Below are positions 1,998-33,496 of a stretch of DNA of 49,924 nucleotides, piece after piece. Within the stretch, counting starts at the first letter, position 1, and each line of letters begins with the position of its first letter. Both the position numbers and the translations under genes were made by a program. The stretch comes from a virus. Its lineage: Duplodnaviria; Caudoviricetes. The notes under the pieces are model-generated. The model had not been told where the DNA came from, made no database searches, and saw nothing but the letters and a program-made list of their open reading frames with translations. The stretch covers positions 1 through 49,924 of IMG/VR virus record IMGVR_UViG_3300020207_000040; one strand, written 5' to 3'.

Positions 1998-2952
1998 TGA
2001 AAGAATACCATACAAACCATTTGAATACCCAGAATATTATACAGAAGGGTGGCTTAAACAAGCACAAGCTTTTTGGCTTCATACGGAGATACCAATGTCA
2101 GGTGACGTCAAAGATTGGAATGAAAAACTTACCAAAGCGGAAAAGAACTTGGTTGGAAATATACTTTTGGGATTTGCACAAACGGAATGTGCTGTATCTG
2201 ATTATTGGACCCAAAAAGTTGTATCGTGGTTTCCTAAGCATGAGATACAACAAATGGCCATGATGTTTGGTTCACAAGAAACCATTCATGCCGTAGCATA
2301 TAGTTATTTAAATGAAACATTAGGACTTGAAAATTTTGAAGCATTTTTACATGAGCCCGCAACTGCGGAACGGTTTGAGAATCTTGTTAGCTATAATGGT
2401 TCTGATCCTGTTGGGATTGGTCGTTCACTAGCAATATTTAGTGCATTTGCAGAAGGCGTAAGCTTATATTCAGCATTTGCTGTTTTATACAGCTTTCAAT
2501 TACGTAATCTTCTTAAAGGAATAGGTCAACAAATGAAATGGTCTGTACGTGATGAATCGCTACACAGCAAAATGGGTTGTCGTTTATTCAGACATATGTG
2601 TGAAGAAAACCCTAAATTATTAAAAGATTGCGAAAAAGATGTACTCAAAGCAGCAGAAACAATGCTTAAAGCAGAAGAACAATATATTGATAAAATGTTC
2701 GAGCAAGGAGACATTGAAAATCTTAAGTCCTACGATCTTAAACAATTCATTAGAAAGCGTCTCAATGAAAAATTGCAAGAGCTTGGTTACAGCGACCACG
2801 GGAAACACTTTGAATTTAACGAAAAAGCAGCGTCAAATCTTGACTGGTTCTATCATCTTACCGGGGGGCATACTCATACTGATTTTTTTGCTGTTCGTCC
2901 GACTGATTATTCCAAAGCAAACGAAGGCGAAGATTTTGAAGATATTTGGTAA
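1984..2952 (+). CDS. nrdB: Ribonucleotide reductase class Ia beta (R2) subunit
   Basis: FW...EI.M..DVKDW; di-iron motifs ETIH and DESLH; Tyr in HAVAYSY; EGVSLYSAF; DFF..RPTDYSK. Confidence 0.95.
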   Translation: MSLFDERIPYKPFEYPEYYTEGWLKQAQAFWLHTEIPMSGDVKDWNEKLTKAEKNLVGNILLGFAQTECAVSDYWTQKVVSWFPKHEIQQMAMMFGSQETIHAVAYSYLNETLGLENFEAFLHEPATAERFENLVSYNGSDPVGIGRSLAIFSAFAEGVSLYSAFAVLYSFQLRNLLKGIGQQMKWSVRDESLHSKMGCRLFRHMCEENPKLLKDCEKDVLKAAETMLKAEEQYIDKMFEQGDIENLKSYDLKQFIRKRLNEKLQELGYSDHGKHFEFNEKAASNLDWFYHLTGGHTHTDFFAVRPTDYSKANEGEDFEDIW

Positions 2953-2965
2953 TGAGAAAATGTAA
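2765..2965 (+). CDS. Candidate nested (+1 frame) membrane protein in the nrdB 3' end (longer start at 2639 possible)
   Basis: 108-codon open +1 frame containing hydrophobic GSIILPGGILILIFLLFVRLII. Confidence 0.3.
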   Translation: MKNCKSLVTATTGNTLNLTKKQRQILTGSIILPGGILILIFLLFVRLIIPKQTKAKILKIFGNEKM

Positions 2966-3308
2966 TAAATGTCATAAAGAAAAATCAGTTGATAAATTTA
3001 GATATGGTAAACGCACTTGTAAAAAATGCGAATATCGTTTTAAACAAAGATTTTTAAGAGCTCTTGTATTACAAAAAAAATTATCACCTGTAGAAAGATT
3101 ATCTTTCAGATTAGGGTATATGGGCACTGCTTTTATGATGATGTCTCCTCATTTATTAAGTTATGGTAAGATTGGAGCAATAACATATGTAATAGCTGGT
3201 TTATTATTAACTCCGCAGGTTTTAGTTTTAAAACAATGGAATTTAGTAGCTGTAAATTTGAATGTAGCAATAGGCTATTTAATTTATTTATATAATTATG
3301 TGGGATAA
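2952..3308 (+). CDS. CxxC/CxxC zinc-finger plus multi-TM membrane protein between nrdB and nrdA
   Basis: CNKC...CKKC then ~3 hydrophobic segments (LLTPQV..KQWNLV); TAATG coupling puts the start at 2952. Confidence 0.7.
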   Translation: MRKCNKCHKEKSVDKFRYGKRTCKKCEYRFKQRFLRALVLQKKLSPVERLSFRLGYMGTAFMMMSPHLLSYGKIGAITYVIAGLLLTPQVLVLKQWNLVAVNLNVAIGYLIYLYNYVG

Positions 3309-5040
3309 CGAATGGAAAAAAGGCGAAGATTACCCTATTTGGGGTGATACAGAAGTCTACAAAAAAACAATAACAGGTGGTTATTTATTGCCTGGTGAAA
3401 CGCCTAAAGATGCTTATTGGAGAGTTGCTAAGACTGTAGCTAGAAGATTATATAAGCCAGAAATGGCTGATCGTTTCTTTCAGTATATATGGGATGGATG
3501 GTTATGTTTAGCTTCGCCTGTATTATCAAATACTGGCACAGATAGAGGTTTACCTATAAGTTGTTTTGGAATTGATGTTGGTGACAGCATTAATGAAATA
3601 GGTATGAAGAATTTAGAAATGATGCTATTAGCCAAGCATGGCGGCGGTGTTGGTATTGGCATTAATATGATTAGACCCGCTGGATCTAGAATTACAGGTA
3701 ATGGAACATCAGACGGCGTTGTCCCTTTTTGCAAAATCTACGACTCAACTATACTCGCGACCAACCAAGGTTCCGTTAGAAGAGGAGCTGCAAGTGTTAA
3801 CATCAATATTGAACACAACGATTTTGAAGAGTGGTTGGAAATCAGAGAACCTAAAGGCGATGTCAACAGGCAATCTCTTAACTTACACCAGTGTGCTGTC
3901 GTTGGCGATAAATTTATGCGAAACCTTGAACAAGGAAATCCTGACGCAAGAAGAAAATGGTCAAAGCTTCTCCAAAAGCGCAAAGCAACTGGAGAACCAT
4001 ACATTTTATTTAAAGGAAATACAAACAAAGCTAATCCAGAAGCTTATAAGAAAAACAGTTTAAAAGTGCATATGACTAATATCTGTAGTGAAATTGTATT
4101 ACATACAGATGAAAGTCATAGTTTTGTTTGCTGCTTGTCATCAGTAAACTTAGACAAATACGACGAATGGAAGAATACGAATTTAATTTACGACGCAACT
4201 TGGTTCCTGGACGGTGTGCTGGAAGAATTTATTCAGAAGGCAAAGAATATGAAGGGATTCGAGAACTCTGTACGCAGTGCGGAGAAAGGCCGGGCACTTG
4301 GGTTAGGTGTCCTTGGATGGCACAGCCTGTTACAGAAAAACGGAATAGCGTTCGAAAGTTTATTAGCACAATTCAAAACGCGAGAAATTTTTTCAAAAAT
4401 AAAAATAGAAACTGAAAGAGCGTCTCGTGCTTTAGCTGAGGTTTATGGTGAACCTTTGTGGTGTGTTGGAACAGGCATGCGTAATACGCATTTAAGAGCT
4501 ATTGCGCCAACCGTATCTAACTCAAAACTTTCAGGTAACGTTTCGCCAGGCATTGAGCCTTGGGCGGCCAATGTGTTTACAGAACAAAGTGCTAAGGGTA
4601 CATTTATACGTAAGAATAAAGAACTTAAAAAAGTATTAAGAAAAATTGGTATTGATAATAAAGAAACTTGGGATAAAATTCTGGAAGATGGTGGATCCGT
4701 TCAAGGAATTAAAGAACTCGATGGATGGTTTTATGATCACGGAGGAAGACTTAACCAAGTAGAAGGCGAGTCTGTAAAAAATGTATTTAAAACATTTAAA
4801 GAGATAAACCAATTAGAATTGGTGCGGCAAGCTGGAATACGACAGGACTATATTGATCAATCAGTATCGTTAAATTTAGCGTTTCCATCCGAGGCTACAC
4901 CAAGGTGGCTAAACCAAGTTCATATAGAGGCTTGGAAGCGAGGTATAAAAACACTATATTATACCAGAACAGAATCTGTATTAAGGGGAGATATAGCGGC
5001 AGCGGCTATGGATCCTGATTGTTTAAGCTGCGACGGTTAA
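3298..5040 (+). CDS. nrdA: Ribonucleotide reductase class Ia alpha (R1) subunit, no ATP-cone
   Basis: ASPVLSN, PISCF, GGGVG, NICSEI (NxCxE), RALGLGV, APTVS, TLYY and C-terminal CLSC. Confidence 0.95.
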   Translation: MWDNEWKKGEDYPIWGDTEVYKKTITGGYLLPGETPKDAYWRVAKTVARRLYKPEMADRFFQYIWDGWLCLASPVLSNTGTDRGLPISCFGIDVGDSINEIGMKNLEMMLLAKHGGGVGIGINMIRPAGSRITGNGTSDGVVPFCKIYDSTILATNQGSVRRGAASVNINIEHNDFEEWLEIREPKGDVNRQSLNLHQCAVVGDKFMRNLEQGNPDARRKWSKLLQKRKATGEPYILFKGNTNKANPEAYKKNSLKVHMTNICSEIVLHTDESHSFVCCLSSVNLDKYDEWKNTNLIYDATWFLDGVLEEFIQKAKNMKGFENSVRSAEKGRALGLGVLGWHSLLQKNGIAFESLLAQFKTREIFSKIKIETERASRALAEVYGEPLWCVGTGMRNTHLRAIAPTVSNSKLSGNVSPGIEPWAANVFTEQSAKGTFIRKNKELKKVLRKIGIDNKETWDKILEDGGSVQGIKELDGWFYDHGGRLNQVEGESVKNVFKTFKEINQLELVRQAGIRQDYIDQSVSLNLAFPSEATPRWLNQVHIEAWKRGIKTLYYTRTESVLRGDIAAAAMDPDCLSCDG

Positions 5041-5773: not shown

Positions 5774-8700
5774 TTATACTTTTATATTGTTAGCTGATTT
5801 TTCCCATGGTAAATGTTTATGACCTTCGTCATAAGCAACTCCATCATAAATTATTTTTTTATCAGGTGTTCTTGGATATTTATTACCATCCCAATAAACA
5901 TTAGATGCATCATATCCTAGTTTTCCAGATTTCATATCAGCAATATGCTTTTTTTCATGAGCAATAACTTCTTTCTTTTTTGCTGGTGATAAACCCGGTG
6001 CAACTTGAATAGTCCCATCTTTATGTGCTTTACCTAATACTCCTTCTGGTAATGCTTCTTTTTTATTTAAAGGTGTTCTTTTAGACTTATTTTTATTTGA
6101 TTTTTTAGTTTCAATACCTAATTGATAAGGACTCCACCCTAAGCTTAACAAAATATTTTGCCATGCCGCGTTTTTATCCATATCAATAGCCTTTAAGTTT
6201 TCGGCCTTTTTAAATGCCCTGTCTAAAGGTATATTAGCTATTGCAGCTGTATAATTTGCAATTGCAAATCCTTGATAAAATGGATCGTCTTTATATTGCC
6301 TCCAATTTTCAAATTTTTGAGCCTCTACTATATCACCAATTTTTTTACTTACAGGAGGAGATATTGTAAGACCAGCTTGTATTAAACCTAAAGCAGGGTC
6401 ATATACTCTTTTACCAGCTTTGCGTTTTTGGTATTGATCGTAGTATTCCATGCCAAGGTTTTTAAGAGCAGCAATTACGGCTCCCGAATAACCCATACCT
6501 CTTAAAAATCCATCTAAAAGGCCATTAGCAAAATATCCTAATTGCTTTTCAGCTTTTTCATCATCGTCATTATCGGATAACAATAAGCTAAATATAGCGC
6601 TTTGTAAACCAGAGAATATAATGTTTTGAGCAGCGCCATAATAAATTATTTTAGAAGCATTTGTTTTCCAGTCACCTCTACCATTAATTAAATCAAGTGT
6701 TGCTTTTTTAGTTTCCCTCGCATACTGTAATGGAGTATTAGCAAATGCTAATATAAATCTACCAATTTCAGATGCTTGTTGTCTAGAAATTTTATCTGGC
6801 CTAGACGATTGTTGCGATGTTTCAGCAATTTCTTGGAATTCAAGCATAGCTTGTTCTTTAGCCTCCGCTTCATTCATTCCTTGGTTTACTAATTGGTTTA
6901 TTTTATTTCTATACCAACTAGCTCCTCCAAATGAAATAGCAAAGCTATCTCCCCATTGAGTAGGCTTAAAACCTAACTCTAAAAGCTTTTTATGCGTTCT
7001 TAAAAACCAATTTCCAGGCTCTGAATCAGCAAGATCAGCGGTATTAATTTCAATTTTTAGGCCGCCACGACGCTCGGTTAAAAATGTAGAATTCCAAAGC
7101 TCAATAAAGTCATTGCTAAATTGAGGTACATTTGCCATAGCTTTAGCCATCATAAATGGATTATTAAAACTCCAGTTCATGAAGTTAATAATAGATAATT
7201 GCTGAAGAACAGCAGATCTAAGGTTTATAGCCATAACGTTTGCTACAGATTGGTTAATCCAATTCATAGCAGCATTGAATTCTTTGTCTTTACCTTTCTT
7301 ACGGTTTACGCCAGTTTCCATTCGCTCTAAAACATTTTTCAATGCATCCACAAAATCATTTCCATGCATTTGTTTTATAAGCTTCATATTAATATCAGAA
7401 AATATTTGTTCTTTATTATTAATAAATTCTGTTAAAAATAATTTTCTTTGAGCTTTATTTGAAACATTAGCTAAATCAGTTTGAATATTACCACCTAACC
7501 AATTTTCTGTTATTTCAGGATAGCCTTCTGGTATTTTAGTTATTTTAGCTAAATCATCTGCAAAAGCTTTTAATTCAGCATTTCCTTCAACTATAGAAAC
7601 TAAACCGGCAGCATCAGCTTTATTCATGCCTAAATCATACCCAGCTTTTTCATATAAGTATGCTCTTACTGCTTGTTCATTAGTATATAAACCATCAAGA
7701 ACTTTTTGTTTTAAAAGCTTTTTATTTTTATATCTTTTCTTTAACGCTCTATGATCTCGGGCTAAAGAAACTTTTGCTGCTTCATAAGCGGCTATTCCTT
7801 TAGCAAATGGAGTCATTAAATTATCTTGAAAAAACTTCATTTGAGCTTCGCCAATTGAGCCTTTGCCTAAAAATGTGTATAGCAATCCCATAAAGTCGTC
7901 AGCTCCGGGCGGAACATATATATTAATTTTTCTAAATAAAGAGCCTTTAGTAGGTTTTTTAGATCTTAATATATTATCCATTTCATCTTCGAGAGATGGA
8001 GCTTCAGCCTCTTTAGCAACTTGCACTTTCTTTTTTACGCCTAAGTCAGTAAGCATTTTATTTACAGCAGCTACATTTTTAGGTGCATCATCAGCAAAAA
8101 ACAAATCGTTATAGCCTTCAGCAACTTTTTCTGCCATCCAAAACGCTTTAGCACTCGGAGCCCCGTCACCAAGTCCGGTTATGTTTTCTAATGGTATACT
8201 TATGCCTAAAGCAGAACGTAAAAAACTTTGTATTGCCTGAGCCGAATTAGCCGGTCTAGCCGTTAATACAAACACATCACGATCTCCTTTTGCTTCAGTT
8301 AATTTTTTAGCAAGAACAGCTAAAGGCCCTTTGCTTCCGTCAACAACTTTAGAAAACTCTGAAAAGTCAAATTCTGCGCCGGCCTCCATAAGCTCCTCAG
8401 ATTGAGCCGCAAATTCTGTAGCGTTTAATTTGCCAGTTGTACCGTCTGGAAGCGTATAAAGCACATTAGATTTGCTCTGCGCAAGTGTATCGTCAAAGTC
8501 AAATACTCTTGCTTTCTTTTTAGGTGCTTTTTTATCTAACGCAACATTTCTAGCCTTACGTAAAACATTTAATTTTTCATTAAGCTCTTCAGTGCTTAAT
8601 CCCGTAGTATCTACACCCAAGTCTTTTAATAATCTTTCGCTTTGTAGCCTTACTTGCTCTTGAGCTTTAGCAACGCCCGATTCACTATATATAGATAATC

Positions 8701-26906: not shown

Positions 26907-29330
26907 TTACTTCGGCTCAAATCTTGATAAATCAAAACCGCCTAAAACATCATTTCCTTTTGATTCAAATGATTGTTTTGGTTTTTCTGTTTTTGGTGGA
27001 CCAGAAATAGAGCTAACTGATATTTTTTTGTCAGCTATTCTTTCTTGAGTTTCAGATTGTTTGTCAACCAATTCTTTTTGAGCAGATAATTCTAACTCTT
27101 TTAATTTAACATTTAAGTCATATTCAAATTGCATTAACTGCTTTTTAGTTTCAGCTTCAAATTGTAGTTTCTTAATAGATAGTTCATTTTCAGCTGTTGA
27201 AATTTGAATAGCGCTTTCGGATTTGACTTGTTGCGCTTGTGCTTTTGCATTTTCAATTTCAATTTGTGCTTTACCTTGCGCTTCAGCTTGAGCAACAGCA
27301 GCGGCTTGTGCAGCTTGCTGATCAGTCATTTGCTTTTTAAGTCTTCTGAATTTGAGTAATTGATTAGCAAGTTTTATATTTCTAACTTCTCTAATATCAA
27401 TTGCATCTTCTAAGAAAATACTTTGTTGAGCTAATGCTGCTTGTATATTGTTTTCTAAAGATTGTTTTTCAAGTTCATCTGGCTGTAAATCTAAAAATAT
27501 ACCAAAGTCGTGTAGATGCAAGTTTTCTAATTCTTTTAAAGAACCTACAGAAAATTGCCCTAAACTTGAAATAAACATATCTCTTGTTGGATGGAATTCT
27601 AATATATCCTTAAATCTTAAAGATATTGCTTCTGCCAATGTTTTTGTAATAAATAAGCTTGTCTCTAATATGTGTCTTGTAGCTACATTACTATTAGCAG
27701 CTGCCATTTTTTGAACCCCAACTAATGCTTTTGGATCTGGGTCAGATCCGTCTCTTGCTTCATTTAATCCGGTAATATCCCGAATCATTTGTAAATATTG
27801 ATTGTATGCTCCAATCAATAATTGTACTTGGTTTCCGCCACCACCAGGAAGTTCTTGAATAGGCACTTTGCCTGGGTTCGGATCGCCTTCAACAGTTAAT
27901 GATCTACCTATAATAGATCCTGTTTGGAAATACATGTTTAATGCTTCCTGCGGATTATAGCTAGTGCCGTTTCCTAAATCAATTTCAGCTAATCCATCAG
28001 CATCAATATAAACTCCAGATGGAGTCATTCTTTGTATTGCTTGTTGTAGCTTTAAATGTGTTAGCTGAATTAAATCAGCATAAGGTGTCATTTTAGCAAC
28101 CAAAGAATCAATTTTACCTTTATATATTCTAGGGGCCGCTACAACATAATTCATTAAAACCTTATTCGCATTAGAATGAGGTCTAATCATATTAGTAGCC
28201 TTTTTCCATTTTAAAAGTTTATTAGCTCCTAAAATATAAACACCTTCATATATTACTTCTTGTGCCTTTGCTACTCTTTCAAATCTTGTTCTTTTATCTT
28301 TTGGCGGATCAAAAGAATCATCTTTTTCAATCGCTTTTTCAGCGCCAGAAGCAATTTCTTTTATTTTATAAACGTTATTTTCCCACGTTTTCCAATTAAA
28401 ATATAAAACGTTAACGCTATTATCTGCTGAATCTGTAGTATTTTCTACACTATAATTATTTGAATAATTATTCCAACCGCCGCTTTTATTACTTAAATCT
28501 TCAATATCTTCGTTTGATAAACTTGGAAATTGTTTTTTAAGTTCATTTACTCTTGTTGATTTTATTTCGCCAAAATAATAGCAGTCTTGAAAATAAGGAT
28601 CTTCTGTATATGACCATATTAAGTTTGCGGGATCAACGTAATCCAATTTAACACCATCAGTATTATTAAAAGAATGGCGTGCTGCTCCAATGCCTAATAC
28701 AGCTATATCATAATCAACACGAGATTTTGTATATTCGTATTTGTTTTGATTAAATATATTTGATATTGCTTGTTCTTGTGCTATTTCTATTCCTTGCTTA
28801 TAATTAAGCTGCATAAATAAATCTAACTCTTCGCTTGATCCAGGTAATTTTTCTTTTTCAATATTGCGAACATTAGTACCAAGTTCAGCCTCAATTAAAT
28901 CAAGCATGGCATTAGTATTCATATCTCTTTGAACACCTTCAACATACTTTGTACGTTTACCAGTAGAAATAGGATCTTCACCTACCGCTCTAACATTATA
29001 TAAGCGGTCTTGCATTCCGTTTACAACAATATCAATAAACTTTGGAATGATTGGTACAGGTTTCCAATCTAAATTAAGATATGATAAATCACCATTAATA
29101 GCAAATTCATCTTTATATTTTCTTATTGATTGTTCGCCTCTAGCATATAAACGTAACCTATGAAATTCATCGCGTAAAGCATAATATCTGCCTTGTGATC
29201 CGCGGCCTGAATTAAACCATTCTTGTTCTATGGCTTTTGCAACTTGCGTACCATATTCAACAGTTTTTTTCTCTGAATCAGACACTGCCTGACTTGGAAA
29301 ATTAGAATAGTTATTTTTTATTTTTGCCAT
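26907..29330 (-). CDS. Portal protein
   Basis: RLRLYARGEQS..KYKDE..INGDLSYLNLDWKPVPIIPKF.DIVVNG; IRDITGLNEARDGS; after terL. Confidence 0.9.
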   Translation of the reverse strand: MAKIKNNYSNFPSQAVSDSEKKTVEYGTQVAKAIEQEWFNSGRGSQGRYYALRDEFHRLRLYARGEQSIRKYKDEFAINGDLSYLNLDWKPVPIIPKFIDIVVNGMQDRLYNVRAVGEDPISTGKRTKYVEGVQRDMNTNAMLDLIEAELGTNVRNIEKEKLPGSSEELDLFMQLNYKQGIEIAQEQAISNIFNQNKYEYTKSRVDYDIAVLGIGAARHSFNNTDGVKLDYVDPANLIWSYTEDPYFQDCYYFGEIKSTRVNELKKQFPSLSNEDIEDLSNKSGGWNNYSNNYSVENTTDSADNSVNVLYFNWKTWENNVYKIKEIASGAEKAIEKDDSFDPPKDKRTRFERVAKAQEVIYEGVYILGANKLLKWKKATNMIRPHSNANKVLMNYVVAAPRIYKGKIDSLVAKMTPYADLIQLTHLKLQQAIQRMTPSGVYIDADGLAEIDLGNGTSYNPQEALNMYFQTGSIIGRSLTVEGDPNPGKVPIQELPGGGGNQVQLLIGAYNQYLQMIRDITGLNEARDGSDPDPKALVGVQKMAAANSNVATRHILETSLFITKTLAEAISLRFKDILEFHPTRDMFISSLGQFSVGSLKELENLHLHDFGIFLDLQPDELEKQSLENNIQAALAQQSIFLEDAIDIREVRNIKLANQLLKFRRLKKQMTDQQAAQAAAVAQAEAQGKAQIEIENAKAQAQQVKSESAIQISTAENELSIKKLQFEAETKKQLMQFEYDLNVKLKELELSAQKELVDKQSETQERIADKKISVSSISGPPKTEKPKQSFESKGNDVLGGFDLSRFEPK

Positions 29331-29332
29331 AT

Positions 29333-31561
29333 TTACTTAATTAGCACACTTTGATCTCCTTCATTCTTATATCTTGAGAATGAAAAATTAAGTTTTTTAG
29401 TTGATCTTTCTTGTCTTGGTCTATATAAATGTTTTCTACAAGCCATTATTGCTAAACCACTACTGATTGAAGCATCATGCGCTGTTCTTTTTGATATATC
29501 AAATTTTGCCCAATCTTCTAATGTTCTTTGAAAATACATATTTCCATAATTATCACCAATCTTACCTACGTTTTCTTCTATGTAGGATTCAATTGCTGCC
29601 GCGTGAGCTTGACGTATATCTTCAGAAGTATTCGGTATTCCACCAAGTTCAGCTTCTGTTTTTGATAATGCCCCGCGTAATTTATCTGGTCGGTTCATAG
29701 AGAAACCTCTATAACCTCTTCTTTTAAAATGATATAATAATCTTGGTTTGTTATTTTCCGCTAGTATTGACATCCCATAAAATACACAAGCCATTAAAAC
29801 ATCTTCAAAAAATATTTCAGCTGTTTGCGGTCTTGCAATGTATTCTAAAAAGAATTTACTAGAAGGAAAATCAGGGTTCATTGAAAAAGTTGTTAAACCG
29901 TGTAGTGCCCCATTAGATCCACCACCACCAACTGTTCCTGATATATCATATGAGTCACAGCCAAAATATCCAAATCCTTCATTGCCTGGATATTTTATAC
30001 CATTCTTTTCAATTACATTATTCCTATGTTCTGCTTTTGGTAACCAGCTTATACGGAATCTACCGTTTCTATTTGGTGTCCAAATAACTTCTGTATCTTT
30101 TATTCCATTACGCCAAGAAAAGCTACCTTTAACAACATAACCATTCATTGCCATCTCTTCATTATGATCTATTTGTTCGTAGATTTTTGTAAGATTAAAT
30201 AATGAATTTAATGTTTCATCTCTAAATGCGTGTTTTTCACTTCTTGGAAATTGTCTATAATATTCATTTAAAGCATCGGCGTCATTTCTTAAACCTTCTA
30301 CCTCATTTTCCCAATGTTCAATAACTCCTGTATGTATGAGACCGCCATCAATTCCTTCAACCGCTTCTCGTGGTGTATTGAAGACAGGGAAGCCATACTT
30401 ATCAATGAATCCTTCGTAGCCCCATTCCATAGGAATGAACAAAGCGTATAATCCACTTGTAGTCTGGCCATTTTTATTTCGTGATCTAACGTCTGAGTCA
30501 TAGTACAATTTTTTAAAATTATCCCCGCCTTTATCTAAAGCATTCGACGTAGATCCCATCATGCATTTGCCAACAATCTTAGCTCCTAGTCTTAAACAAG
30601 TTTTTGTTACACGCCAGTTATTTAATATATTATCAGGCCGCTCCCATTTACCAGATTCGTCATGAACTAATAAAATTAATTTTTCACCATCATAACTATT
30701 GTCTCCAGTGTTCTTCCAGTCTATTGTTGTATCGAGCCCCTGCCCCGTGAAATCGTCTTCGGCCTCTTTGAAGGAATTTCTTGTGAGCCTCCTCGAGGGT
30801 ACCTTGTACGATAATTCGGTTTTCGGACGTTCCATTCCGTCCTGTATTGGTTTGAAAAAGAACGGATAGTTGGTCGATATTGGTACAACCTTGTCTGTAA
30901 ACATCTTCTTAGCATCGGATCCTGACTTAGATAATATTCCAAATCGCGAGTCCCTTGATGTTGTAGCAACGTTAACAGTTTCTGAAGACGCCATGAAGCT
31001 AAAGCCAGACCGTCTGTTTTTGAGGTAGCACATTCCATAACATCTGCTATCAGCCTTGCATGCTTCCCAAAAGTAATAGAAGATCCTGTTGGCATGCCTG
31101 AAATCCGGTGCCCCCACGTCAATCTTTGTCCAGTTGAGATACATATAGTGTGATCCTGTAATGTAGCATGGCTCACCGTTGCACATGAACCAATAACCAT
31201 CATTCCTACGAGTAAACTCGGTATCAATATATTTATAGTATTGCTCTTTAGTTTTTTCAGGATGATGTTTAAAATCATGTATGGTTTTTATTTTGCTTAA
31301 TGATTCAGGTCTTTCCCTTCTTATAAATACCTGGTCTTCTTTCTTTAATTCCTGACCATTTATTTTTTCAGGAGTTTTAGGTATTGCTATCTTGAGACCT
31401 TGAATCTCATATATTTCACCAATTGTACCGTCTTTACTTATTACAACGCAATCAAGTTCTTCGTTGTATCCGTACTCGTACTTTTTATGTTTATTATTGT
31501 GCTTTACTTTTTTGGTATCAATATGGTCTATAATTATATTGTAGAGTGATTGTGTATACAT
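29333..31561 (-). CDS. terL: Terminase large subunit
   Basis: Walker A-like KNRRSGFS, Walker B LLVHDE, GSTSN, nuclease FGCDSYD, AENNK, HDASISSG. Confidence 0.92.
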   Translation of the reverse strand: MYTQSLYNIIIDHIDTKKVKHNNKHKKYEYGYNEELDCVVISKDGTIGEIYEIQGLKIAIPKTPEKINGQELKKEDQVFIRRERPESLSKIKTIHDFKHHPEKTKEQYYKYIDTEFTRRNDGYWFMCNGEPCYITGSHYMYLNWTKIDVGAPDFRHANRIFYYFWEACKADSRCYGMCYLKNRRSGFSFMASSETVNVATTSRDSRFGILSKSGSDAKKMFTDKVVPISTNYPFFFKPIQDGMERPKTELSYKVPSRRLTRNSFKEAEDDFTGQGLDTTIDWKNTGDNSYDGEKLILLVHDESGKWERPDNILNNWRVTKTCLRLGAKIVGKCMMGSTSNALDKGGDNFKKLYYDSDVRSRNKNGQTTSGLYALFIPMEWGYEGFIDKYGFPVFNTPREAVEGIDGGLIHTGVIEHWENEVEGLRNDADALNEYYRQFPRSEKHAFRDETLNSLFNLTKIYEQIDHNEEMAMNGYVVKGSFSWRNGIKDTEVIWTPNRNGRFRISWLPKAEHRNNVIEKNGIKYPGNEGFGYFGCDSYDISGTVGGGGSNGALHGLTTFSMNPDFPSSKFFLEYIARPQTAEIFFEDVLMACVFYGMSILAENNKPRLLYHFKRRGYRGFSMNRPDKLRGALSKTEAELGGIPNTSEDIRQAHAAAIESYIEENVGKIGDNYGNMYFQRTLEDWAKFDISKRTAHDASISSGLAIMACRKHLYRPRQERSTKKLNFSFSRYKNEGDQSVLIK
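30298..30501 (-). CDS. Candidate nested ORF (+1 frame) in terL
   Basis: 67-codon open +1 frame coinciding with a C/G-ending codon patch of terL. Confidence 0.3.
   Translation of the reverse strand: MTQTLDHEIKMARLQVDYTLCSFLWNGATKDSLISMASLSSIHHEKRLKELMAVSYIQELLNIGKMR
30721..31278 (-). CDS. Candidate nested lipoprotein-like ORF (+1 frame) in terL
   Basis: 185 stop-free codons; KKLK, then hydrophobic INILIPSLLVGMMV, then IGS-C; local GC rise. Confidence 0.5.
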   Translation of the reverse strand: MILNIILKKLKSNTINILIPSLLVGMMVIGSCATVSHATLQDHTICISTGQRLTWGHRISGMPTGSSITFGKHARLIADVMECATSKTDGLALASWRLQKLLTLLQHQGTRDLEYYLSQDPMLRRCLQTRLYQYRPTIRSFSNQYRTEWNVRKPNYRTRYPRGGSQEIPSKRPKTISRGRGSIQQ

Positions 31562-31809
31562 TATTTTATTCTATCTTCTACTCCAAAAAACTTTACAGAC
31601 TCTTTTTTATCTTTTGTATTATCTTCAGATAATTCTTCTATCTTTTCTATTATTTTAAATGAATCTTCTATTGCAACCCATTTTGCTTGAGCAGCTATCT
31701 TTGCTTTTTCAGGTTCTAGTTCAACTAAATCTATTCGTTGTCTTATAACTTTATCTAATTCTAATAAAGCTACTTGAGCAGCTTCAATTACTTTTTTTCT
31801 CGGATCCAT
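31561..31809 (-). CDS. Small helical protein, possible terminase small subunit
   Basis: Directly upstream of and TAATG-coupled to terL. Confidence 0.55.
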   Translation of the reverse strand: MDPRKKVIEAAQVALLELDKVIRQRIDLVELEPEKAKIAAQAKWVAIEDSFKIIEKIEELSEDNTKDKKESVKFFGVEDRIK

Positions 31810-32362
31810 AGTTTATTGTTATATGATTTGATAAAATTCTATATAATTTTTGATCCTCTATGCTAAACTCATATTCTGAATCAGGTGTAAACCCTACCAC
31901 GTCGCCTACGGTAAATCCTAAGGCTCTTAAATAGCTGTTGCTATACACAAGCTCTCCTAATAATTTTCGCTCGCTGTCAGTAGCCCATTTGGAATCTTCT
32001 TTTAATGGCTTTACAAAACAATAACCTTCTAAGCAGTTCCATTGTCCATCTCTTTTGTAAGCATAAATTTGATCAGGAGCAACCATATATTCCCTATCTC
32101 TTATATAGCTAGAAGAATCTTTTTCATTGCCTCTAATATCAATCCATCTGCGAAATACGTTATGATGCAATATTACTTCATCATTTTTTTGTATTGGCGT
32201 TTGGACCATAGCTGGGGTTGAAATAACTTTGCCAATTCTATTTGTAAACATAAAATCGCGTTCTGTTATTTCTGTATTTAAAATAAGCTCTTGCCCCTCT
32301 ACATCTGTAGAATTATTATATCTTTGATTACAGTAAATAATAAAATTGAAAATTGAACGCAT
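31784..32362 (-). CDS. GroES-like co-chaperonin (two GroES-like halves)
   Basis: G.VISTP...PIQ.NDEVILHHNVF; CFVKPL...GELVY...L...GDVVGFTP.SEYEF.I..QKLYR. Confidence 0.65.
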   Translation of the reverse strand: MRSIFNFIIYCNQRYNNSTDVEGQELILNTEITERDFMFTNRIGKVISTPAMVQTPIQKNDEVILHHNVFRRWIDIRGNEKDSSSYIRDREYMVAPDQIYAYKRDGQWNCLEGYCFVKPLKEDSKWATDSERKLLGELVYSNSYLRALGFTVGDVVGFTPDSEYEFSIEDQKLYRILSNHITINYGSEKKSN

Positions 32363-32580
32363 TAGTAGTCTAGGTTGTACTCAACTGAAATTGCCATGTT
32401 TTTATTAAAATGTTTCCAAGGCAATACTTCGTCATTTTTTTTAATAAATATATTATAAGTTCCGTCTTCTTCTATGATGTCTGAAATAGTATGCCCACCA
32501 TAAACTTCTTGACCAACAGCATAATGCATTGCTTCATTTTTATAATCTTGGCCAATTGATATTTTTCTAATTAATTTCAT
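32362..32580 (-). CDS. Conserved hypothetical protein (72 aa)
   Basis: MKLIRKISIG.DYKN.AMHYAVGQEVYGGH; ATG at 32580 follows the endolysin stop. Confidence 0.75.
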   Translation of the reverse strand: MKLIRKISIGQDYKNEAMHYAVGQEVYGGHTISDIIEEDGTYNIFIKKNDEVLPWKHFNKNMAISVEYNLDY

Positions 32581-32581
32581 T

Positions 32582-32926
32582 CTAGTAAGTCCAAATTGTT
32601 GTTTCAGGTGCGCCAGGATAACCAATACCTACGTGCACAAAGTTATTTTTTCTACTTATACCTATTCTTTTAAATCCAACTTCAATAGCTGCTTTTACTA
32701 ATTTAAAGGTTGCCTCACCACCTACACAAGCAATATCAACTGCAGCACCATAAGTATGTTCGCCTGGTTTTGATTTTTTAGCTTCAATTGGATGATCAGG
32801 AGATCTATAAGTTGATGTTAACTTAATTGGAAAACCATAAGCTTCTCTTAGGTTGTCAAGCATTTCTAAAAGCTTTGGATCCATTTTATCAAATTCATTA
32901 AATTCAGATTCATTAAAGTATTTCAT
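32582..32926 (-). CDS. Peptidase M15 family endolysin
   Basis: MKYF..SEF, LDNLRE.YG.PI.LTS.YRS..H, H..G.AVDI, F.RIG....FVHV. Confidence 0.88.
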   Translation of the reverse strand: MKYFNESEFNEFDKMDPKLLEMLDNLREAYGFPIKLTSTYRSPDHPIEAKKSKPGEHTYGAAVDIACVGGEATFKLVKAAIEVGFKRIGISRKNNFVHVGIGYPGAPETTIWTY

Positions 32927-32930
32927 TGTA

Positions 32931-33083
32931 TTATTTTTTAAGTTTACTATGTATATTAATTAAAGTATAGACAATTGTTAGTAATAAAACCCCTGTCTGT
33001 AACGCGGGATTTAAACCTTCTGCCAGCGGCGAGCTTGCTATTAATGCTGTTATATTTATACCGTATATTTTTAAATCTGTCAT
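32931..33083 (-). CDS. Small holin-like membrane protein (50 aa)
   Basis: Hand translation MTDLKIYGINITALIASSPLAEGLNPALQTGVLLLTIVYTLINIHSKLKK*; ATGA overlap with the upstream holin. Confidence 0.65.
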   Translation of the reverse strand: MTDLKIYGINITALIASSPLAEGLNPALQTGVLLLTIVYTLINIHSKLKK

Positions 33084-33496
33084 TTGTGTCTATTATTACC
33101 CATAATTTTTTCGGCACCGCGTGATCCAAAATATCCTATGAATACAATTGTCATTAATTCTTTCACTGTGTCTAATTGTTCTATTTGCATATACCATCCA
33201 ATAACAAAAGCTACTGTTAAAAATACTAGCGTTAGCGGCCGTACATTAGAAGCTAGCCAAGATCCAGATCTTGCATCAGCAACCCAACGACGTGTTATGC
33301 CATCAATTTCAGTTCTTTCTAATTCTAGCTTTTTAAGTGCCAATTCTTTATCAGCATCTGACATATCAGATCCACCAATAATAGCTTGTATTACAGAGCC
33401 TACAGGGGTGTCTCCTGCGATTGCACCAACAACGTTAGGAATTTTGTCTAATAAAAATTTACCAACGCTGGTATCTTTAAATTTCTTTTTTTCCAT
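33080..33496 (-). CDS. Holin, 3TM (GTA-holin-like) family
   Basis: ITRRW.AD..S.SWL..NVRPLTLVFL...GYFGSRG.EK. Confidence 0.75.
   Translation of the reverse strand: MEKKKFKDTSVGKFLLDKIPNVVGAIAGDTPVGSVIQAIIGGSDMSDADKELALKKLELERTEIDGITRRWVADARSGSWLASNVRPLTLVFLTVAFVIGWYMQIEQLDTVKELMTIVFIGYFGSRGAEKIMGNNRHK

Follow-up and report, generated by a model that had tools for sequence, protein, structure and literature searches.

Can the gene for the large terminase subunit (terL) of a tailed phage hold a second, exported protein in its +1 frame, and if so, what would that protein do? The question is raised by a 49.9-kb phage fragment (Caudoviricetes; IMG/VR record IMGVR_UViG_3300020207_000040, positions 1–49,924), the whole of which is called the window here. 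Within it, a 185-residue open reading frame (ORF), hereafter the hidden frame, overlaps the part of terL that encodes the N-terminal ATPase portion of TerL (Table 1). A first-pass annotation had singled it out as the longest alternative-frame ORF of the window, and it is indeed the longest gene-overlapping ORF among the 62 ORFs of at least 80 amino acids. We conclude that the +1 frame of terL is very likely a real protein-coding gene.

The stop-free stretch around the hidden frame measures 188 codons, against 78 for the runner-up in the same frame of terL. When terL was recoded with TerL fixed and with gene-wide codon usage, none of 20,000 recodings kept the stretch open, about 6.7 stops being expected; permuting only the codons of the region itself left it stop-free at a rate of 0.0002, and 2 of 5000 synonymous recodings produced an equally long frame at any place in terL. 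By the kind of codon-shuffle null that the first-pass annotation proposed, the frame is more than chance would give. Of 23 genes of the window put to 300 recodings each, three (terL, nrdA and nrdB) have a +1 frame that no recoding reached. The rise in GC content described earlier is also present (0.415–0.465 across 30600–31200, mostly 0.27–0.37 nearby). It is a third-position effect, third-position GC in terL being 0.51 in codons 121–280 versus 0.21 downstream, and it results from the choice of hydrophilic residues in the +1 frame.

To compare relatives, we called a sequence open when it had no +1 stop over terL codons 113–229, counting only loci that cover these codons. The first scan gave a bimodal picture: among the 70 of 81 rows with such coverage, which include the window and one identical locus, 44 had no +1 stop and 26 had 2–7, and the remaining four frames of terL were closed in these sequences. 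Stop-free +1 windows of 117 codons begin only within codons 91–211 (61–69 sequences). In a pooled set of 275 distinct terL sequences, which come from differently biased scans and do not represent population frequencies, 150 were open, comprising 46 of type A, the type that includes the window's clade, and 104 of type B; at 95% clustering, 71 of 143 clusters were open. The other 125 sequences mostly stop early, with the first stop by codon 149 in 116, at codons 196–198 in 3 and at codon 225 in 6, the last six retaining an intact signal. The frame is thus kept open in many terL homologues, a point that the first-pass annotation had proposed to check. No such frame exists in five cultured relatives or in an environmental genome at 63%, and the hidden gene is narrower in distribution than its host gene.

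Open sequences also carry putative starts of their own. A start codon lies upstream of the signal in 47/47 type A and 103/103 type B sequences with coverage; the first ATG is retained in 35 of 46 type A sequences, and one subclade begins at codon 109. Later starts (TTG at terL codon 112, ATG at 120/121) were rejected, as they would lose the basic n-region. A programmed frameshift is not needed because starts and signals of the frame's own are present, and fused proteins among the database matches look like assembly indels. Some copies have already been called by database gene callers, unnamed.

The basic KKLK segment, the hydrophobic stretch, the IGS-C32 motif and the Arg/Pro/Tyr-rich tail are all present as first described; the signal is long, at 31 residues, with its first Lys at residue 8. 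In type A, the hydrophobic stretch occupies codons 110–125 (mean hydropathy 2.00, 16 sequences; −0.15 in type B and 0.14 in closed sequences) and is followed by hydrophilic residues at codons 127–139. Type B is reversed, with a hydropathy of 2.48 at codons 127–139, and closed sequences are intermediate; the stretches of the two lineages lie 16 codons apart. At four-fold sites in codons 127–139, the base that yields Leu in the +1 frame had a frequency of 0.02 in type A, 0.45 in closed sequences and 0.94 in type B. The predicted hydrophobic signal of the +1 product is thus built by synonymous choices, at two offset places in two lineages. On this evidence the hidden protein is very probably exported or membrane-anchored.

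These base choices also bear on whether the open frame and the GC rise could be a by-product of a DNA or RNA signal, of codon preference or of GC-rich import, without any protein function. Three observations would suit such an origin: amino-acid identity shows no purifying selection, the three cysteines (Cys32, Cys83 and Cys126) all follow from TerL dipeptides, and nrdA and nrdB have long +1 frames as well. Nevertheless, +1 is the sole open frame, and base shifts track +1 hydropathy, in opposite directions in the signal and the mature part, even at codons where no stop is possible. Moreover, the shift reaches codons 281–312 only where the frame extends there (85/130 versus 7/30), and a nucleic-acid signal would demand conserved third positions, which these sequences lack. 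On these grounds we rejected GC-rich import or an RNA signal, and we consider the absence of any protein function very unlikely. Selection holds the +1 frame open, and the gene was likely born by overprinting.

Whether the product is a lipoprotein depends on the lineage. The predicted lipidation site arises from TerL codons 126 and 127. TerL residue 127 is Asn in 220 of 229 type B and closed sequences, and Cys (44) or Arg (2) in the 46 type A sequences; Met126 with the changed residue 127 gives the +1 Cys, and Met-Asn can give a stop. The window's clade has thus altered a TerL residue in a way that creates the putative lipobox Cys. Furthermore, the Phe125 codon is TTC, placing Ser at −1, in 37/48 type A versus 16/125 closed sequences. 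A PROSITE-like lipobox pattern was passed by the window and by 37/48 type A sequences, the other 11, a basal subclade, having Leu at −1; in type B it was passed by 0/104 at the first Cys and by 7/104 at the second. Export therefore appears to characterise the whole family, and the canonical lipobox only the subclade to which the window belongs. No other ORF of the window, in whatever frame, has a plausible lipobox. The earlier claim of a lipoprotein encoded within terL accordingly holds in part: the frame is a selected hidden gene with an export signal, and in the window's clade a lipoprotein is the probable product, whereas the canonical lipobox is not kept family-wide.

A fast tree of 107 rows has closed outer lineages and shows type A as one clade within the range of type B; open and closed states alternate at least 13 times on this tree, which includes the overlap and has many weak forks. 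A tree from residues outside the overlap, which omitted L001, L056 and three short rows, requires at least 6 state changes, 1 of them forced by well-supported branches. One origin with repeated losses is the simplest reading of these sequences; recombination also blurs the picture.

The mature chain evolves with few constraints of its own. Its hydropathy is shifted to the hydrophilic side (−0.4 against +0.3), with Lys plus Arg barely changed (15.8 and 13.0% in open frames versus 14.0% in closed ones). The shortest forms with an intact signal end at terL codon 225, immediately beyond the latter of two cysteines that TerL forces, so that a disulphide would be possible. Third-position change in the overlap, measured in disjoint close pairs, was 0.19 in type A (13 pairs) and 0.28 in type B (23 pairs) versus 0.12–0.19 in the flanks, and 0.15 versus 0.13–0.15 in closed pairs; the overlap was slower than the flanks in only 10 of 36 open pairs (p 0.011) and in 7 of 16 closed pairs. 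Purifying selection on the +1 amino acids was looked for and not found. AlphaFold2 gave no confident fold (mean pLDDT 43 with 34 sequences and 53 with 116 sequences, pTM 0.17), its models containing the signal helix and one helix near residues 92–111, and the mature part is predicted to be a largely unstructured chain.

The hidden protein matched no Pfam, PHROG or NCBIfam family and had no Atlas match. A profile search of 1.84 billion proteins returned 147 matches; 142 of the 145 new ones are +1 translations of closed terL, the other three being weak matches to long unrelated proteins. No free-standing homologue was present among the proteins searched, as expected of overprinting. The hidden gene thus appears to be a de novo overprinted gene for an exported protein.

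The first-pass annotation, noting that the nearby lysis cluster has no recognisable spanin, had placed this gene beside the Rz1-type outer-membrane spanin subunits (o-spanins). That assignment was not supported: the host gene is a terminase gene rather than that of an inner-membrane partner (i-spanin), and a membrane-helix scan of the 49.9-kb fragment passed two ORFs, neither i-spanin-shaped. The C-terminal helix of a one-protein spanin (u-spanin) was sought as a 17-residue hydropathy of at least 1.6 after the signal and occurred in 1 of 150 open frames, the window having none. The outer-membrane lipoprotein signal is predicted in the window's clade and lacking in most type B sequences. The hidden protein is probably not the missing spanin.

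The hidden frame lies 1.3 kb downstream of the endolysin gene on the same strand, and it goes together with a holin-like gene of the lysis cassette, which resembles PF11351. Within 22 records at least 90% complete, all 15 open records have a PF11351-like gene and no u-spanin, and the 7 closed ones divide into 4 with a PF11351-like gene, 2 with a u-spanin and 1 with neither (PF11351-like gene in 15/15 versus 4/7, Fisher p 0.023), 14 of the 15 open records having been reached via the window's nrdA, so that the co-occurrence is not phylogenetically independent. The dependence thus seems to run one way, from the frame to the PF11351-like gene, as would be expected if the frame encoded an optional regulator of this holin.

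Some closed relatives have, in the lysis cassette, a free-standing gene whose layout is that of a u-spanin, with a lipobox and a C-terminal membrane helix. Among clusters with at least 2 kb upstream, it occurs in 7 of 58 closed and 0 of 54 open ones (p 0.008); at 5 kb the counts are 4 of 29 and 0 of 26 (p 0.07). Loci obtained through the u-spanin query itself were left out of these counts, and every one of the 22 such loci that cover terL is closed. Family lineages with a u-spanin-like cassette and no PF11351-like gene have all lost the frame. Moreover, u-spanin-like and PF11351-like genes never occur together (0 of 120 loci, many of them near-copies), and the former often occupies the place of the latter after the endolysin gene; this mutual exclusion and shared place hint that in some cassettes the outer-membrane step may fall to the PF11351-like protein. 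u-Spanin-like genes of this kind lie in L012 (1729-2208), L027 (395-829), L350 and L393; the gene of L012 and its relatives form a family with a lipobox, a Lys/Thr/Val-rich middle and a C-terminal helix, which has 462 database homologues and no PHROG match.

This distribution could mean that the hidden protein is itself an outer-membrane lysis factor, a lipid-anchored flexible chain replacing a spanin alone or with the PF11351-like protein as inner-membrane partner. A minimum length combined with free sequence would suit a periplasmic tether, and o-spanins are often unstructured and embedded out of frame (PMC6139136). The u-spanin exclusion is, however, confounded by the PF11351-like gene: since the u-spanin-like gene excludes and replaces that gene, it is simpler to see the substitute in the PF11351-like gene than in the hidden frame, and a simple replacement of u-spanins by the hidden frame was rejected on this ground. 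The near-complete closed records with a PF11351-like gene but neither frame nor u-spanin, and the one with none of them, also argue against such a factor, as do the lack of an i-spanin-shaped gene in the window and the near absence of a C-terminal hydrophobic stretch. Lys plus Arg hardly exceeding that of closed frames weakens a cationic, disruptin-like action. We regard an outer-membrane lysis factor as rather unlikely.

From the co-occurrence with the PF11351-like holin gene and the repeated loss, our best guess is an optional lysis regulator. The hidden gene would be translated from the late lysis–packaging message, and its product would be exported and then lipid-anchored at Cys32; as a largely unstructured periplasmic chain, it would most likely delay the PF11351-type holin, like the antiholins T4 RI or ICP1 ArrA, both target and effect being guesses. 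The product is predicted to be exported or membrane-tethered, is dispensable in that relatives have lost it, and is encoded with a holin-like gene, all antiholin-type traits. By analogy with these systems we put the full mechanism forward tentatively.

Several observations weigh against lysis regulation. The PF11351 match of the holin-like gene falls below the family cut-off, and the holin-like protein has an apparently short loop between its two clear membrane helices. Thirty-six closed clusters hold the holin-like gene without the frame, and the co-occurrence in near-complete records is not independent, as stated above. The mature chain has no conserved residues beyond the TerL-forced ones, and rapid change would be unexpected in a protein that binds a conserved holin. 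As an antiholin, the 50-residue membrane protein encoded next to the holin-like gene would be a more conventional choice. Lipid anchoring itself lacks a canonical lipobox in most of type B and in the basal type A subclade. By default, lipoproteins go to the outer membrane, and such sorting would likely take the product away from an inner-membrane holin.

A rival reading is superinfection exclusion or receptor masking, in which the lipoprotein, on the periplasmic face of the outer membrane, blocks a receptor or DNA entry in the manner of T5 Llp and an arms race drives its change. Acidic residues after the Cys are almost absent in the window's clade (0.02 per sequence), which, by the sorting rule, makes a periplasm-facing position more likely than export to the surface. 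The faster change of the overlap in open lineages only and the patchy loss fit this role too; however, the raised rate could stem from selection opposing AT-biased mutation. Small free-standing lipoproteins occur in the closed records G006, G007, G009 and G017 and are missing from the 94%-complete open record G001, but open G013 also has one and closed G008 and G018 have none. A replacement of small early lipoproteins by the hidden frame was rejected, the picture being mixed across 16 whole or partial records and the window. Llp, moreover, is made early and binds a defined receptor (10.64898/2026.03.26.714494). The hidden frame, in contrast, belongs to a presumably late operon, and its product lacks a confident fold; terL codons 1–125 of 44 type A sequences contain no Bacteroidetes-type promoter motif, which also fits a link to lysis. 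We rate superinfection exclusion as doubtful, yet close behind lysis regulation. What probability the readings discussed here leave over, we assign to roles that we have not thought of.

The nearest cultured relatives by TerL are Flavobacterium elemoviruses (45%), followed by Maribacter phage Panino, Pachyviridae and Pervagoviridae (31–40%), so a flavobacterial host is likely for the window phage. An estimated 7300 or so stretches in the viral collection match the window terL. A motif near 30998–31024, which we take to be Walker A-like, lies in TerL, for which a sequence search gave no solved-structure match. The gene upstream of terL for an 82-residue protein is, by its position, a possible small terminase gene. 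A GroES-like gene (31784–32362) adjoins terL, likewise in cultured Pachyviridae, Pervagoviridae and elemoviruses, and in some relatives GroEL and GroES are located further upstream. terL is interrupted in L056, where the match is spread over 3.2 kb, and split in L021 and L054, as nrdA is in G011; these may be insertions or assembly errors. The C-terminus of a 2614-residue protein (5774–6050, minus strand) ends in an HExxH segment that resembles, by eye, the product of a free-standing gene for 100–147 residues, possibly a wall-degrading enzyme, that many relatives carry next to the holin-like gene.

Table 1. Features of the hidden gene, of its host gene terL and of the neighbouring genes in the window.
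Feature	Position	Strand	Remarks
Overprinted +1-frame gene	30721..31278	−	ATG start; terL codons 95–280
Predicted signal peptide	31186..31278	−	residues 1–31; basic n-region, h-region residues 16–31
Cys32, predicted lipidation site	31183..31185	−	I-G-S-C; from TerL Met126-Cys127 codons
Core of mature chain	30889..31182	−	residues 33–130; open in all functional-looking forms; hydrophilic, variable; Cys83, Cys126, one predicted helix
Dispensable tail	30721..30888	−	Arg/Lys/Pro-rich; relatives end anywhere from terL codon 225 to 330
Raised third-position GC in terL	30724..31201	none	
terL, terminase large subunit, 742 aa	29333..31561	−	phrog_6681, E 4.5e-173; cultured relatives annotated terL
Portal gene, directly 3′ of terL	26907..29330	−	phrog_6547
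Three genes between lysis cassette and terL	31561..32625	−	72–87 aa protein, GroES-like, 82-aa protein
Endolysin, peptidase M15	32582..32926	−	PF08291, phrog_894
50-aa membrane protein, lysis cassette	32931..33083	−	no family match; putative holin or antiholin
Holin-like gene	33080..33496	−	weak PF11351 GTA_holin_3TM, 18.3 bits (cut-off 24.8); phrog_3427

Further long out-of-frame ORFs were seen in nrdA and nrdB. A second +1 ORF, of 120 residues (3701–4063, plus strand), lies within nrdA (3298–5040); it is open in 46 of 57 clusters, with the same start Met in 46/46, and has 5–12 stops in the other 11, a signal peptide not being evident and no family matching above cut-off. Long out-of-frame ORFs at 2639–2965 (plus strand) in nrdB and 4128–4415 (plus strand) in nrdA were likewise unreached in 300 recodings; the former is open in 19 covering homologues, with a split less clean than that in nrdA. 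Another nrdA +1 stretch, codons 301–418, is open in 22 of 80 relatives and closed in the window. The type A genome G001 (L089, L090) has five more same-strand out-of-frame stretches of 107–145 codons in replication-region genes; the four closed records scanned have none.

Overprinting in conserved enzyme genes thus seems to be a habit of this phage lineage. Taken together, and speculatively, the family may repeatedly invent proteins within such genes (terL, nrdA, perhaps nrdB). The product of the hidden frame in terL would be a new class of de novo envelope protein, at first a membrane-anchored chain and made a lipoprotein in one clade by a 16-codon move of the signal and a residue change in the packaging ATPase; with the PF11351-type protein it would form a spanin-free lysis or lysis-inhibition system in flavobacterial phages. 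We found no report of a gene overprinted on a terminase gene or on nrdA in the literature searched (subscription papers and supplements not covered), the word terminase is absent from PMC6139136, on spanins, and the hidden gene of terL for an exported protein is apparently unreported so far. In these tailed phages the locus shows, as a clean natural series, how overprinting gives rise to a gene, from absence in outer lineages through two signal forms to shortening or loss elsewhere, in which the new gene visibly recodes an essential motor gene. Standard annotation shows none of these hidden genes, and terL and nrdA, both phage marker genes, can bear a second layer of selection. The hidden gene also provides a testable lead on how spanin-less Bacteroidota phages open the envelope or time lysis.

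Known systems share some of these traits. u-Spanins (T1 gp11 type, PMC6139136, and the genes of L012, L027, L350 and L393) likewise have an N-terminal lipoprotein signal and a link to the lysis region, but those of relatives never share a genome with the hidden frame, whose product has no homology to them and, in all but one of the open frames, no C-terminal membrane helix. The phiKT gp28 disruptin is a 56-residue amphipathic cationic peptide that acts in spanin-less phages (10.1101/515445); the hidden protein is cationic too, although most of its basic charge simply follows from the reading frame, and it has a predicted signal peptide. T5 Llp, made shortly after infection, resembles it as a phage-encoded lipoprotein that would sit on the inner side of the outer membrane, and differs in its early expression and known receptor, the hidden gene lying in a presumably late operon without a fold prediction or known target.

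The holin–antiholin pairs are another comparison. ICP1 has a PF11351 holin, TeaA, that is under the control of a dispensable antiholin (10.1101/790493), and the T4 antiholin RI acts in the periplasm and has a signal that can be cleaved (PMC9636201). As in TeaA/ArrA and T/RI, a holin of or near the PF11351 family lies in the operon with an exported or anchored, non-essential companion. ArrA, however, is a conserved membrane protein whose gene adjoins that of the holin, and RI is folded, whereas the hidden protein is overprinted 1.8 kb away, variable and predicted to be unstructured, with no sequence likeness found. Finally, o-spanin lipoprotein genes are known to be embedded in their i-spanin genes (PMC6139136). 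Unlike lambda Rz1, the hidden gene sits in a terminase gene rather than in that of a partner i-spanin, none of which was found; its mature part spans 98–205 residues, the gene is missing from many relatives and the sister lineage is without a canonical lipobox. Like Rz1, it is a lipoprotein-type gene lying fully within another gene in the +1 frame, with an unstructured mature part, and overlooked by gene callers.

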